Shown here: in pieces, positions 34,025 through 55,649 of the stretch
Numbering within the stretch: position 1 is the stretch's first letter
How the letters are laid out: each line of letters begins with the position of its first letter
Assembly: GCA_030646995.1 (NCBI GenBank)
Contig: JAUSKF010000002.1
Location: 76,092 to 140,091 of the forward strand
DNA length: 64,000 nucleotides
Reading direction: 5' to 3'
Source: a bacterium
GTDB taxonomy: Bacteria; Patescibacteriota; Minisyncoccia; UBA6257; WO2-44-18
The notes under the pieces: generated by a model
Told to the model about the DNA's origin: nothing
Databases searched by the model: none
What the model saw: only the letters and a program-made list of their open reading frames with translations
Program-made: the position numbers and the translations under genes

Positions 34025-34053
34025 AAGCCTCCGAGAAATCGGGGGCTTTTTTA
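34025..34053 (+). terminator. rho-independent terminator
   Basis: AGCCTCCG-AGAAAT-CGGGGGCT + TTTTTT. Confidence 0.6.
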
Positions 34054-34074
34054 TTCGCGATTACTCCACCTGTC

Positions 34075-34175
34075 CGTCATTGCGAGGATTCACCAGAATC
34101 CGTGGCAATCTTACTATAGTGCGATTTATAAATAGCTTTTCTGCTAGATTGCCGCGGGATTACCCTCGCAATGAC
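34075..34175. ncRNA. 101-nt nested long hairpin element flanked by direct copies of TTATTCGCGATTACTCC (34051-34067 and 34185-34201)
   Basis: Outer 12-bp perfect inverted repeat GTCATTGCGAGG / CCTCGCAATGAC, inner CCGTGGCAATCT / AGATTGCCGCGG; lies between CPBP and serS 3' ends. Confidence 0.4.
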
Positions 34176-34184
34176 AGCCGGGAC

Positions 34185-35498
34185 TTATTCGCGATTACTC
34201 CTGATTTCTTTCTTGCCAACCAATTTTCTCAAAACTTTCGGTACCATCACCGTCCCCTCTTTAGTCTGATAATTTTCCAGAATCGCGATAATGATACGCC
34301 CGATGGCGAAAGCAGTAGCGTCGTTCATATGCACGAACTCGGTCTTCCCATCTTTCCGGCGGACCTTCGTCGATAATCGACGAGACTGGTAATCGGTCAT
34401 CAAATCAGAAGTATGGGTCTCGCGATATTTATTCTGACCGGGAAGCCAAGCCTCAATATCAATCTGCCGATAATCTGGACCGCCCATATCGCCGGTGCAA
34501 ACCGAAACCACCTGATATGGAATCTCCAGCTGCTGCATCAGATACTCCTGAATACCCACGATAAAATCTTGCTCCTTACGGGAATTTTCGGGAGTCGTGA
34601 AAGACTCCATTTCCAACTTATCGAACTGATGCATCCGCAAGATTCCCTTTACGTCTTTTCCGTGGGAACCGGCCTCACGGCGGAAGCTAGTGGAATAGCC
34701 GATATATCGTAAAGGAAACTTATCCTCCTGAATCGTAGAATCCATATGAATCGGACCGAGTGTATGCTCGGCGCTTCCAACAAGATAGATGTCGTCTGTC
34801 TGCAAATGATAACGCTCTTCTTCTTGGCCGGGATCTAATCGAGCCATTCTCTTAAATACTTCCGGCTTAATCATTACAGGAGGAAGGACCGGCACAAAAG
34901 GCTTCGCCGAATATCCTTTTTCAACTTGGTTAGCAATCTTTTTTAAAACTTTTTCATTTCCCAGCGTATCAAATACGAATTTGATGATTGCCATCTGCAA
35001 TAAAGCCGCATCCCCTTTCAGGTAAGCAAAACGGCTGCCGGAAACTTTTCCGGCGGTTTCAGTATCAATGATTCCTAGCGCTTCGCCGAGAGTCAGATGA
35101 TCTTTCGGTTCGAAATTAAATTTAGTCGGAGCGCCTTCACCCGCCTGGGCGGGCCACTGGCGGATTGGTTTATTCCCCGATTCATCAGGCCCCACCGGCA
35201 CATCGTCAGCTGGTAGGTTTGGGATTTTTACCCAAGCCAAATGCCTTTCTTTCTCCAATTCCGGCAGTCCCACTTCAGCCGCTTTCATTTCTTCTTTCAC
35301 TTTTTTCGCCTCTTCGATATTCCGCTCTTTACTGAACTGATTCAGTTTCGCGCGTAAATCCTCAATTTTCTTTACCGCCTCACGCCATTTGGTATCTTTT
35401 TCTAATAATAAATCCACGGCAGCAGCCGGCACATTCTTTTTGGCAACGCCATCTTTAACTAAATCTGGATTTTTGCGAATGAGTTCGATATCCAACAT
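34185..35498 (-). CDS. serS: seryl-tRNA synthetase
   Basis: MLDIELIRKNPDLV N-terminal coiled coil, class II motifs; start moved to the internal Met at 35498. The track ORF is extended upstream through the heptad repeat. Confidence 0.9.
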   Translation of the reverse strand: MLDIELIRKNPDLVKDGVAKKNVPAAAVDLLLEKDTKWREAVKKIEDLRAKLNQFSKERNIEEAKKVKEEMKAAEVGLPELEKERHLAWVKIPNLPADDVPVGPDESGNKPIRQWPAQAGEGAPTKFNFEPKDHLTLGEALGIIDTETAGKVSGSRFAYLKGDAALLQMAIIKFVFDTLGNEKVLKKIANQVEKGYSAKPFVPVLPPVMIKPEVFKRMARLDPGQEEERYHLQTDDIYLVGSAEHTLGPIHMDSTIQEDKFPLRYIGYSTSFRREAGSHGKDVKGILRMHQFDKLEMESFTTPENSRKEQDFIVGIQEYLMQQLEIPYQVVSVCTGDMGGPDYRQIDIEAWLPGQNKYRETHTSDLMTDYQSRRLSTKVRRKDGKTEFVHMNDATAFAIGRIIIAILENYQTKEGTVMVPKVLRKLVGKKEIRSNRE

Positions 35499-51240: not shown

Positions 51241-51257
51241 GGCGGTTTTTAGTTTTG

Positions 51258-51466
51258 GTGCCGCGGGAGGGAATCGCCTACAACTCTCGCCTCGCCGTCG
51301 CTCGGTTCGGTCGCAGGCCGCCCCTCGCGACCCCGCAAGCTTGCGGGGTATCGCTGCGTTCTTCAATATCCCTACGCGAGCCAAACAATTGGCTCGCTCC
51401 CGCCGCTACAAACAAAAAATAAAGCGCCTTTTCGTGGCGCTTTATTTTTCTGTTGTGCCGCGGGAG
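51258..51466 (-). ncRNA. GC-rich multi-hairpin segment ending (minus strand) in a 17-nt duplicate of the tRNA 3' end plus templated CCA (ATTCCCTCCCGCGGCAC-CA)
   Basis: Closed by a 12-bp helix 51262-51273 / 51395-51406; internal perfect hairpins ACCCCGCAAGCTTGCGGGGT and GCGAGCCAAACAATTGGCTCGC; terminators on both sides. Confidence 0.45.
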
Positions 51467-51761
51467 GGAATTGAACCCCCGACGCCAGCCTCTTCCAAAG
51501 GCTAGTTGGACTATCTCATTCCCGTTCTTAAAAACTTAAGAGTGCGGGATCGGGCGCTATTGCAGGATTATTGTTGGGACTCACCTGCTAGTCTCTACAC
51601 CTTCCAGAAAACTTAAACCCTTTCTGGCTCGGCTCGGGATTGTCGTATGCATATTTTACTATACATCCGGTTTTCCCCGAATTCACCCAATTTTTCGATC
51701 CGCATTACTACGGAAGGCCCCAAAGATCTAGGGCTGCGCTCTACCACTGAGCTACCGCGGC
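51467..51761 (-). tRNA. tRNA (inferred Phe, anticodon GAA) interrupted by a group I intron after U33; CCA not encoded
   Basis: Exons fold as canonical cloverleaf (acceptor GCCGCGG/CCGCGGC, D arm TAGCTCAGTGGTAGAGC, T arm GGGGGTTCAATTCCCTC, A73). Spliced anticodon loop is CU|GAAGA. Confidence 0.6.
51507..51729 (-). ncRNA. group I self-splicing intron (223 nt) in the tRNA anticodon loop
   Basis: P1 pairs 5' exon GCCCU with intron GGGGC (U.G at splice site); final nucleotide is G; P/Q/R/S-like elements GAATTCGGGGAAAA, CAATCCCGAGCC, GTAGAGACTAGCAGG, GAGATAGTCCAAC (P7 GACTA/TAGTC). Confidence 0.65.
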
Positions 51762-51764
51762 ATA

Positions 51765-52481
51765 CTAACTAAAATTGTGGTTCTTAACGCCATCTATCCA
51801 GCCAATTATGCGATGGAATAGCTTGGTATCACTTATTCTAACCTGCAAAACCCCATAAGGCAAGCGATTAAATGGCCTCTTTCCCATACTGGATTTACTA
51901 ATTCCAAGATAGGTTTTATTAAAGTTCTCCCTGGGAATACCGGTTGTCTTAACCCAATACTTCAGGGTCGCCTCAGCATTCATATGTTGAAAAATTCTTA
52001 AATTGGCTTTTATTTTCTCGACCGGTACTTTACAAATCTTTTTAATAAACGCCAAGAAGACATTGATTAAAACCGGATCAGCATTAGTAAGACTAATGGG
52101 GTGATATGTGACTTCCCTTCCACCTCTCACAATCGGCCGCTTATACCCCTCCGCCCAGTACAACGCCAAACCGATAAAAAATAGATTCTGAATAGAGATA
52201 TTTGCAATCTCGCCGTGCGCTAATTTCTGGATTTCTTCTTTTCTTTGCAGAGCCAAATGAGTTTGATTTTTATTTCTTTTCAAAAGGCCTTCCAACGATT
52301 TTTGTTTGGACCGATTCTCAATTTTTTCCCTTGCACTCGCGGATAAAACTATGTTTTTCAACCATAGCGACAAAGTAGACTTAGAAATACCAGGCAAGGT
52401 TTTCTGGATTTCGCTATAACTCTTGCCCTGCAACCGTAGCTTAATGGCCGAGAATTTATCATTACGCATTATATATATCAT
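51765..52481 (-). CDS. HTH + LAGLIDADG-like domain protein; candidate free-standing homing endonuclease ending 4 nt from the intron-containing tRNA
   Basis: N-terminal HTH KSYSEIQKTLPGISKSTLSLWLKN; motif FIGLALYWAEGYK resembles a LAGLIDADG helix ending in E-G. Confidence 0.3.
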   Translation of the reverse strand: MIYIMRNDKFSAIKLRLQGKSYSEIQKTLPGISKSTLSLWLKNIVLSASAREKIENRSKQKSLEGLLKRNKNQTHLALQRKEEIQKLAHGEIANISIQNLFFIGLALYWAEGYKRPIVRGGREVTYHPISLTNADPVLINVFLAFIKKICKVPVEKIKANLRIFQHMNAEATLKYWVKTTGIPRENFNKTYLGISKSSMGKRPFNRLPYGVLQVRISDTKLFHRIIGWIDGVKNHNFS

Positions 52482-55411: not shown

Positions 55412-55484
55412 GGTCTCATCGTCTAGTTGGTCAGGACATACGGTTCTCATCCGTAAAACATGGGTTCGAATCCCATTGGGACCA
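55412..55484 (+). tRNA. tRNA-Glu (anticodon CUC), CCA not encoded
   Basis: Cloverleaf with acceptor GGTCTCA/TGGGACC, D arm TCGTCTAGTTGGTCAGGAC, loop TTCTCAT, T arm ATGGGTTCGAATCCCAT. Confidence 0.8.
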
Positions 55485-55649
55485 CAAAACTCAAAATAAA
55501 TCTGGGATTCGAACCCAGCAGCACACCGTGTTGGAAGGCGCTCGGAAACCAGAAGGTGTCCGAGACGGGGGTCGGGGTGCTGCGATAGTGGTTCGGCAAA
55601 CATTAGGCGGCAGCCTCAATGCGCAGCGAAAATCCCATTGGGACCACCA
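55485..55649 (+). ncRNA. structured GC-rich segment ending in a 17-nt duplicate of the tRNA-Glu 3' end plus templated CCA (AATCCCATTGGGACCAC-CA)
   Basis: 7-bp helix GCAGCAC/GTGCTGC enclosing hairpin CTCGGA..TCCGAG; T-arm-like TGGGATTCGAACCCA on the opposite strand. Confidence 0.45.

Follow-up and report, generated by a model that had tools for sequence, protein, structure and literature searches.

Short structured inserts behind tRNA genes in Patescibacteria: candidate miniature elements of tRNA 3' ends

The 64-kb stretch of contig JAUSKF010000002.1 that was analysed here (in the following called the window) is chromosomal DNA of the Patescibacteria (candidate phyla radiation, CPR) and is Paceibacteria-like. 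Its housekeeping genes include tgt, sua5 and the genes for ribonucleotide reductase, aminoacyl-tRNA synthetases and the cell wall, and its Tgt protein is at most 71% identical to the best relatives in the genome collections, which are uncultured Patescibacteria. The window contains two tRNA genes, tRNA-Phe(GAA) on the minus strand and tRNA-Glu(CTC) on the plus strand, and each of them is followed by a short insert that ends in a second copy of the tRNA 3' part. On balance, we consider both segments to be miniature non-coding insertion elements specific for tRNA 3' ends in this lineage. The Glu insert belongs to an undescribed, widespread family of structured elements, which we call family B.

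Duplicated 3' ends at tRNA-Phe and tRNA-Glu

At tRNA-Phe, a perfect 17-nt direct repeat is formed by 51455-51471 and 51258-51274 (spacing 197), and a second one occurs at tRNA-Glu (55469-55485 and 55631-55647, spacing 162; Table 1). Both repeats correspond to tRNA positions A58-C74. A scan of the whole window for direct repeats of 15 nt or more, spaced by no more than 400 nt, gave only five families, and these two are among them. The chance expectation amounts to 0.0017 such repeat pairs per window; for a given tRNA, 2.6e-8 downstream copies of a given 17-mer would be expected. A chance origin had been named in a first-pass annotation of the sequence as a way in which its own reading might fail. 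As stated there for the two loci, the copies are 17 nt long and CCA is encoded at the distal copy only. The proximal copies continue with AACAG (Phe) and AAAAC (Glu), so that no CCA results, and the distal copies continue with CA, which yields A73-CCA (51258-51256 for Phe, 55647-55649 for Glu).

At both loci, the insert begins right after C74 of the intact tRNA gene, and the second copy of positions 58-74 then follows. The sequence between the repeats is non-coding and comprises 180 nt (Phe) and 145 nt (Glu). Its GC content (0.64-0.69 for Phe, 0.60-0.61 for Glu) is higher than that of the flanks (about 0.38-0.47), which agrees with what had been noted before for the Phe segment. Quantification of the predicted folding energies yielded -79.3 kcal/mol for the Phe segment (z -4.1 versus shuffled controls) and -59.4 kcal/mol for the Glu segment (z -2.4). 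The insert also provides the tRNA with a new trailer, which is usually AA and in most family-B copies elsewhere includes a hairpin with a T-run; such a hairpin is present in the Phe insert, and the Glu insert has an A-rich linker only. When we searched Rfam 15, no match was obtained over either segment (E up to 5). Terminal inverted repeats starting with TGT were not found, the Glu insert having the ends AAAACTC...GCAGCGAA and the Phe insert the ends AACAGAAA...GTAGGCG. Beyond the insert, the Phe distal copy is followed by AAAC and by a terminator-like hairpin that is common to the convergent pseudouridine synthase (PsiS) gene. The Glu distal copy and the stop codon of the phosphoglucose isomerase (PGI) gene, which is likewise convergent, are 3 nt apart.

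More detailed inspection of the Phe insert indicated a linker carrying a terminator-like hairpin (about 51413-51449), a 5' arm, GCGGCGGGAG (51397-51406), whose complement lies in the distal tRNA copy, and a stretch of GC-rich hairpins in which the palindrome ACCCCGCAAGCTTGCGGGGT is exact at 51330-51349. Thus, the perfect hairpin of the first-pass annotation is present. The 12-bp closing helix proposed in addition is imperfect, since GCGGCGGGAG and CTCCCGCGGC pair with one mismatch, and the minimum-energy fold contains 2 + 7 pairs here. For the distal copy, the sequence is GGCACCAAAAC; the earlier transcription, ...CACAAAAC, is one base off. The group I intron of this tRNA gene (51496-51729) had been overlooked. 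As for the terminators that were thought to bracket the segment, two hairpin-plus-T-run sites can be read directly in the sequence, and a consensus scan called none at the locus. The segment can also fold into a closing helix (imperfect, about 10 bp) that leaves ACCA overhanging and gives this single sequence a minihelix-like end.

To put these sites into context, the window was compared with related stretches labelled L001-L127. Exact-protein look-ups of close relatives gave mostly short contigs ending within the tRNA or the insert and thus few complete sites. The short-read contigs from Logan (L081, L082, L086-L092) repeatedly end in tRNA genes or inserts, and L081 and L082 overlap by only about 15 nt within the family-B core; such ends are consistent with multi-copy or polymorphic sequence at these places. 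The closest relatives recovered were L088 and L089, whose neighbouring PsiS is 92% identical to that of the window. Here, the PsiS stop codon is followed by a terminator and then by the reverse complement of an uninterrupted, intron-less tRNA-Phe ending in GGCA-CCA-AAAC. This gene end and its flank are collinear with the distal copy and flank of the window, and the sequences diverge exactly at T-loop position 57/58.

The frequencies of encoded CCA point in the same direction. In the related loci, CCA is encoded by 8 of 31 element-free tRNA genes and by none of 16 proximal copies (p 0.025). Among the distal copies, CCA was found in 6 of 17, which does not differ from this background. Because of these frequencies, the distal flank resembles native tRNA flank and the proximal flank resembles insert sequence. 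The distal CCA is therefore most simply read as the ancestral gene end and not as a mimic of a mature tRNA end, as the first-pass annotation had suggested; that suggestion finds no support in the L088 gene either, which encodes CCA with the same flank. Distal copies decay in some relatives (one mismatch in L083, a 4-nt deletion in L092, ATTCCCGCGGCA), as would be expected of displaced gene ends that are no longer used. The 47 distinct tRNA genes listed for L093-L116 and the window all encode C74 after the discriminator, and in most of them AA comes next; only about one quarter carry the full CCA. We also considered a reverse-transcribed mature tRNA end that stopped at m1A58. This candidate was rejected as unnecessary, since a relative encodes CCA with the same flank and since CCA after distal copies is no commoner than in ordinary genes. 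As a practical consequence, where a tRNA gene lacks CCA, a CCA encoded further downstream can indicate the ancestral gene end.

Table 1. Coordinates of the features at the tRNA-Phe and tRNA-Glu loci of the window
Feature	Coordinates	Strand	Basis or remark
tRNA-Phe proximal 17-mer ATTCCCTCCCGCGGCAC, positions 58-74, then AACAG	51455..51471	-	direct-repeat scan
Phe insertion, 180 nt (linker, 5' arm, GC-rich hairpin region)	51275..51454	-	GC, fold
Phe distal 17-mer plus CA, positions 58-76 with CCA	51256..51274	-	flank collinear with L088/L089
tRNA-Glu(CTC), C74 at 55485	55412..55484	+	ARAGORN, Rfam 65 bits
tRNA-Glu proximal 17-mer AATCCCATTGGGACCAC, positions 58-74, then AAAAC	55469..55485	+	direct-repeat scan
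Glu family-B structured element	55496..55649	+	covariance model R1, 118 bits, E 6e-27
Glu distal 17-mer plus CA, positions 58-76 with CCA	55631..55649	+	direct-repeat scan
tRNA-Phe(GAA) exon 1, positions 1-33, ending ...CAGCCCT	51730..51761	-	sequence reading
Group I intron, 234 nt, anticodon loop, positions 33/34 (CT/GAA)	51496..51729	-	RF00028
tRNA-Phe exon 2, G34 to A73; C74 at 51455	51456..51495	-	sequence reading
238-aa protein, HTH and LAGLIDADG-like domain	51765..52481	-	gene ends 3 nt upstream of tRNA-Phe

Family B and the turnover of inserts among relatives

Family-B loci were recovered by an exact-pattern scan of metagenome contigs with 22 specified core bases, which gave 24 loci, and a covariance model (R1) was built on 16 distinct copies. 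With this model, the 877 kb of CPR loci yielded 28 matches (about 20 distinct sequences), and the 732 kb of other loci yielded none. All matches are in Patescibacteria, and all but 3 of the 28 lie visibly behind a tRNA gene. They include the window Glu insert, L092, L086 and two adjacent copies in L111. Family B is found behind at least 11 tRNA types (12 with the tRNA-Phe site in L092); the tRNAs are those for Ile, Met, Arg, Val, Lys, Ala, Gly, His, Ser, Glu and Phe, the first nine stemming from the 24-locus scan. In almost all of these 24 loci, the order is tRNA, N73-C-AA, usually a T-run hairpin with a locus-specific sequence, the element and the copy of the tRNA 3' end. Among the 15 distinct loci with readable tRNA and distal copy, 12 have an identity block of 16-18 nt that extends from position 58-60 to C74.

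The fold of family B comprises about 135-200 nt on the tRNA-sense strand. It starts with a 5' motif (GGGAnTCGAACC) that is antisense to the T-arm of the upstream tRNA (positions of about 52-65); over 9-15 nt, this reverse complementarity is exact in 12 of 13 distinct loci. In the window Glu element, where the motif reads TGGGATTCGAACCCA, the exact reverse complementarity to the tRNA-Glu T-arm comprises 15 nt. The structure is closed by pairing between the motif and the 3' part of the element (GGTTCG, hairpin hp3 and A58-C63 of the distal copy), and positions 64-74(76) are left as a free 3' tail, i.e. the acceptor 3' strand with or without CCA. In the closing helix, both sides are changed at 4 of 6 pairs, and in helix P2 (GCCGCACCCCG / CGGGGTGCGGC) C-G pairs are swapped to A-U. 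A hairpin UCGGAAACC..GGUGUCCGA is invariant throughout the family, and variable hairpins enter at two fixed points. The window Glu element contains P2, the invariant hairpin (TCGGAAACC..GGTGTCCGA), hp3 and the distal copy as 3' strand of the closing helix.

G-U pairs were observed in the family-B alignment on the tRNA-sense strand only, and 87.7% of the alignment cells can pair, compared with 31-49% when the partners are slid by 1-3 columns. Together with the compensatory changes, these data are the signature of a fold under selection, either as RNA or as single-stranded DNA of the same polarity. Thus, a tRNA-linked structured RNA, as discussed in the first-pass annotation, stands for the Glu type in so far as a covarying sense-strand fold closes on the tRNA copy; the part that took the CCA for a mature-end mimic is not supported. 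Two candidates on the opposite strand were rejected: a primer-binding site, because the G-U pairs and the model scores favour the tRNA-sense strand, and a tRNA-like gene or transfer-messenger RNA (tmRNA), because there is no acceptor pairing and no match by ARAGORN or Rfam.

Four full family-B copies gave no match in Rfam (E up to 1), and the family-B core had none in viral contigs. There is no conserved neighbouring protein gene across 25 loci, and searches of NCBIfam and PHROGs with the neighbouring small proteins were without match. In the literature searched, we found no described equivalent of tRNA-linked inserts or of family B. The heptamer GCGAAGC recurs at two places (P3 loop, hp3) in many family-B copies. 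This sequence forms an unusually stable DNA mini-hairpin and would fit a single-stranded DNA stage.

The layout is more widespread than the family-B core. The inserts at tRNA-Val of L093 and at tRNA-Gly of L096 have the anti-T-arm motif and the 3' copy in common with family B and carry different cores, and another family (family A) has only the repeat in common with it. Several unrelated insert families thus have one layout. The Phe insert of the window also follows the layout of family B, with a hairpin/T-run linker, a 5' arm directed against the distal copy, GC-rich hairpins and a distal copy in native flank. However, the best score of the Phe segment with the family-B model was 5 bits, and the 11-bit match in this stretch lies on the tRNA itself. 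No homologue of the segment was found in any of the loci, and its palindrome gave no match in viral contigs. The visual motif match to a degenerate family-B copy is therefore unsupported by the model, and we infer that the Phe segment is an orphan or a degenerate representative of the common layout.

Comparison of relatives indicated that the occupants of these sites change. The tRNA-Phe site carries the orphan insert in the window, no insert in L088, a family-B element in L092 (65 bits) and an unrelated family-A insert in L083, the distal copy of the latter having one mismatch and no CCA. The family-A inserts behind tRNA-Phe of L083 and tRNA-Glu of L087 are 94% identical over 67 nt, up to the contig end, and the neighbouring PGI proteins of these genomes are each 82-83% identical to that of the window. 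The Glu insert of the window is also present behind tRNA-Glu in L086, and L085, L083 and L001 have a tRNA-Glu without insert. These data bear on three of the checks proposed in the first-pass annotation. The pattern recurs at other tRNA loci (family B behind at least 11 tRNA types), alignment of the inter-repeat segments across loci revealed compensatory changes in the pair counts of family B, and relatives differ in presence, the tRNA-Phe insert being missing in L088 and different in L092 and L083.

The orientation of tRNA-Glu and tRNA-Phe relative to their neighbours (PGI, Sua5, Tgt, MtN3, PsiS) is opposite in the window and in L001/L083; tRNA-Phe and PsiS converge in the window, in L088 and in L092, and they have the same direction in L083 and L090. 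If the elements are mobile, dispersed insert repeats may explain such flips between close relatives. On the minus strand of L097, just downstream of a family-B element (649-825), a 28-nt unit occurs twice, 14 nt apart. This unit consists of the last 11 nt of the element and the 17-nt tRNA copy, the first one being followed by CCA and the second by CAA, and it is single in the sister locus L116. At tRNA-Lys of L002 (3540-3590, minus strand), the last 19 nt (C56-C74) are tandemly duplicated with one filler base and no insert, which could be an excision footprint or an abortive event.

The group I intron of tRNA-Phe and a palindromic insert in the window

tRNA-Glu is the only tRNA gene of the window that was detected by ARAGORN and Rfam, and ARAGORN misses tRNA-Phe because a group I intron splits its anticodon loop. 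The intron scored 41.4 bits with RF00028 (E 3e-8), which is below the gathering score of 50. It has the features of its class, since the exon end ...CCCU can pair with GGGG and the intron ends in ...UUUG, and homologous introns in the same gene layout scored 70 bits (L120/L121/L123) and 47.6 bits (L127). The tRNA-Phe exons are identical to the intron-less tRNA-Phe of L083, and L088 likewise has the same exons without intron. The intron is a separate mobile layer and not part of the 3' insertion. The adjacent gene for the 238-aa HTH/LAGLIDADG-like protein belongs with the intron. Such a gene, ending 3 nt ahead of the tRNA, and an intron-bearing tRNA-Phe form a conserved module in the window, in L120/L121/L123 and in L127, and a Foldseek search of the protein against the PDB gave no match. 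In L120 (5018-5049), 10 nt after the intron-bearing tRNA-Phe, there is a 30-nt remnant of another tRNA-Phe allele (positions of about 44-73), which gives the impression that the resident gene was displaced by an incoming cassette of endonuclease and tRNA.

Elsewhere in the window, a 117-bp palindromic insert (34068-34184; 34051-34201 with its repeats), which resembles a miniature inverted-repeat transposable element (MITE), is flanked by a perfect 17-bp direct repeat. Its inner inverted repeats GTCATTGCGAGG lie at 34076-34087 and 34164-34175. The duplicated 17 bp comprise the final codons of the seryl-tRNA synthetase gene together with its stop codon, and this insert is the only copy in the window. 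The equal duplication length of the MITE-like insert and the tRNA inserts is a lead only.

Possible origins of the inserts

The first-pass annotation had offered decayed integration scars, miniature elements with a 17-bp target duplication and tRNA-linked small RNAs as explanations, and the miniature elements fit best: the site is empty in a relative, three different inserts or none are found at the tRNA-Phe site, and insert families occur behind different tRNAs. The scars are the weakest of these options. They would be attL/attR sites of tRNA-targeting elements of the tyrosine-integrase type (crossover in the T-loop), later deleted to about 150-200 bp, and we hold this origin to be improbable. 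It is true that the repeat spans the T-loop to the tRNA 3' end, as in the T-loop-type attachment (att) sites that are reportedly known, and that the insert is bounded by this direct repeat of the tRNA 3' part at both loci and, in 16-18-nt blocks, at 12 of 15 family-B loci. Foreign sequence after the tRNA-proximal copy, native flank after the distal one and insert sequences that vary between relatives would also be compatible with such scars. However, at none of about 30 sites did we see an integrase gene or pseudogene, an insert longer than about 230 nt or a full-size integrative element, and the 39 larger open reading frames of the window that were scanned for protein domains contain neither integrase nor transposase domains. 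There is no coding capacity between the repeats, the relatives carry only other small inserts or none, and no match was found in viral contigs. Uniform sizes and a conserved, covarying core behind at least 11 tRNA types are unexpected of random deletion remnants. The classical tRNA-targeting integrative elements, islands and CIMEs resemble the present inserts in their 3' tRNA site, in the repeat from the T-loop to the 3' end, in an insert that completes the gene and in the displaced native end. They are specific for one tRNA, whereas family B with its structured core is found behind at least 11 tRNA types and family A behind Phe and Glu, and the inserts described here (145-230 nt) are gene-less with no integrase seen. 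Still less probable, in our judgement, are non-autonomous elements moved by a DDE transposase with 16-17-bp staggered cuts, such as that of the ISTde1 subgroup (IS1202 family), in which case the 17-mers would be target-site duplications. ISTde1-type insertion sequences generate 15-17-bp repeats (bioRxiv 10.1101/2022.12.17.520857). The repeats described here are of corresponding length (16-18 nt) and directly flank the insert, and the same window contains the MITE-like insert with its perfect 17-bp duplication. In contrast to IS1202-family insertion sequences and MITEs, the tRNA-linked inserts lack terminal inverted repeats and TGT...ACA ends, their left ends vary even among members of one family, and they are strictly specific for tRNA 3' ends. 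No transposase domain was found among the scanned reading frames, and the mismatched distal copies in L098 and L101 are unexpected of a target duplication.

Alternatively, the segments might be resident, host-beneficial genes of tRNA-linked small RNAs, which were built in place from a duplication of the tRNA 3' end, are inherited vertically, are sometimes lost and do not move. We regard this scenario as unlikely, if somewhat less so than the scars or the DDE elements. Such genes would be expected to show what is seen in family B, namely strong conservation and covariation together with G-U pairs on the sense strand, and also orthologous copies such as those at tRNA-Ala(TGC) in L101 and L111, two loci that are syntenic but divergent. 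In L098, the element lies 3 nt from the tRNA, a distance from which co-transcription would be predicted to be unavoidable. On the other hand, one core behind at least 11 tRNA types, each with a matching 5' motif and 3' copy, would need repeated assembly or movement, and the tRNA-Phe site, which among close relatives is empty or holds one of three different inserts, does not suggest residence. Family A is 94% identical behind Phe and Glu despite 82-83% identity of the neighbouring PGI, and the T-run hairpin that precedes most copies would limit co-transcription.

Other candidates were discarded on the basis of their signatures. An intron in the T-loop that joins position 57 to the distal position 58 appears unneeded, since the proximal copy completes the tRNA and a T-run hairpin usually follows. 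For an integron attC-like site, the paired boxes are in the wrong order. IS200/IS605, IS91 and casposons were rejected because matching end signatures, terminal repeats and Cas1 are lacking and the duplication rule misfits, and a group II intron fragment behind a terminator because the inserts are far too small and have no domain V.

Three further known systems share individual properties with the inserts. Homing group I introns and free-standing endonucleases likewise spread among conserved RNA genes with a presence that varies between relatives, and such an intron with a LAGLIDADG-like gene occupies the same tRNA-Phe gene. In addition, the 5' motif of family B complements both sides of 57/58, as in the layout of an internal guide (P10 part, then P1). 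However, the element lies outside the mature tRNA, so that no splicing is needed, has no group I core in Rfam and no linked endonuclease. The omega RNA (reRNA) of TnpB and the bridge/seek RNA of IS110 also consist of a scaffold of about 150-200 nt ending in about 16-19 nt that match the insertion target, and a second segment complements the opposite strand of the target. A TnpB, IscB or IS110 gene is present neither adjacent to the element nor in the window, and the first 6 nt of the putative guide are paired within the RNA; any kinship of family B to these RNAs would be by analogy only. tRNA-like RNAs (tmRNA, YrlA, viral 3' tRNA-like structures) resemble family B in a 3' T-stem and acceptor 3'-strand sequence, sometimes with CCA, and resemble the Phe segment in its helix of about 10 bp with ACCA overhang. 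Unlike them, family B has no acceptor 5' strand, most copies lack CCA, and neither ARAGORN nor Rfam gave a match.

If the segments are miniature insertion elements, they may spread via recombination that relies on the tRNA sequences flanking the insert left and right. Campbell-type or site-specific exchange would be candidate modes, as would homing-like repair of a break in an empty tRNA gene with the filled gene as template. The distal copy would then act as right-hand homology or specificity segment, and spread would proceed without a transposase recognising terminal inverted repeats, an enzyme that is disfavoured because such repeats are absent and the left ends vary. The proximal copy would complete the tRNA and keep it functional, and the displaced native tRNA end would be recruited as a structural strand of the element. 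We place much less confidence in movement by this specific mode than in the insertion elements as such.

Several observations weigh against our preferred interpretation. The distal copy of L098 differs from the upstream tRNA by 3 mismatches, and that of L101 has 5 mismatches and equals the 3' end of a tRNA-Ala(GGC) located about 900 nt away; the 5' motif of L101 matches this distal copy and not the upstream tRNA. The linker and terminator sequences are wholly different among copies with near-identical cores, which is unexpected for a recently mobile unit, and the tRNA-Ala(TGC) elements of the syntenic, divergent L101 and L111 look old and vertically inherited. L088 could have lost its insert by recombination between the two 17-mers, so that the direction of change at the Phe site is unproven. 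The Phe segment is an orphan sequence, its membership being defined by layout alone, and neither an enzyme nor a circular form nor an autonomous copy was found. Because of the mismatches in L098 and L101, the distal copy can travel with the element and need not be made from the target, which fits recombination with tRNA homology on both sides. Some inserts, as indicated by the L101/L111 orthologues, are old and maintained, and this implies selection on function alongside any mobility.

A bolder reading, to which we give only a small chance, is that family-B-type elements constitute a new class of guide-bearing mobile RNA or folded single-stranded DNA that is free of protein genes. Here, the region from the T-loop to the acceptor would be specified jointly by the 5' motif, which is antisense to 52-65, and by the 3' tail, which repeats 58-76 in sense. 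By analogy, their ends would either align both sides of 57/58, as P1/P10 of group I introns do, or address both DNA strands, as a bridge RNA does. Insertion or copying of the element at cognate tRNA genes would then depend on an enzyme that is not linked to it, either a host enzyme or one acting in trans, and the conserved core would be an enzyme-binding or catalytic scaffold.

tRNA genes are classic landing sites for large integrative elements. The occupants described here are tiny and gene-less, and one of their families has a covarying, RNA-like fold that is formed in part by the displaced tRNA end. In practice, the inserts break short-read assemblies at tRNA genes and lead to spurious 'tRNA fragments' in annotations. 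If the fold functions as RNA, an unannotated RNA class would be located behind many tRNA genes, so far in Patescibacteria loci only, and its tRNA-specific, guide-like ends would make the target directly testable. If the elements are mobile, they would have a way to colonise essential single-copy RNA genes of very small genomes harmlessly.

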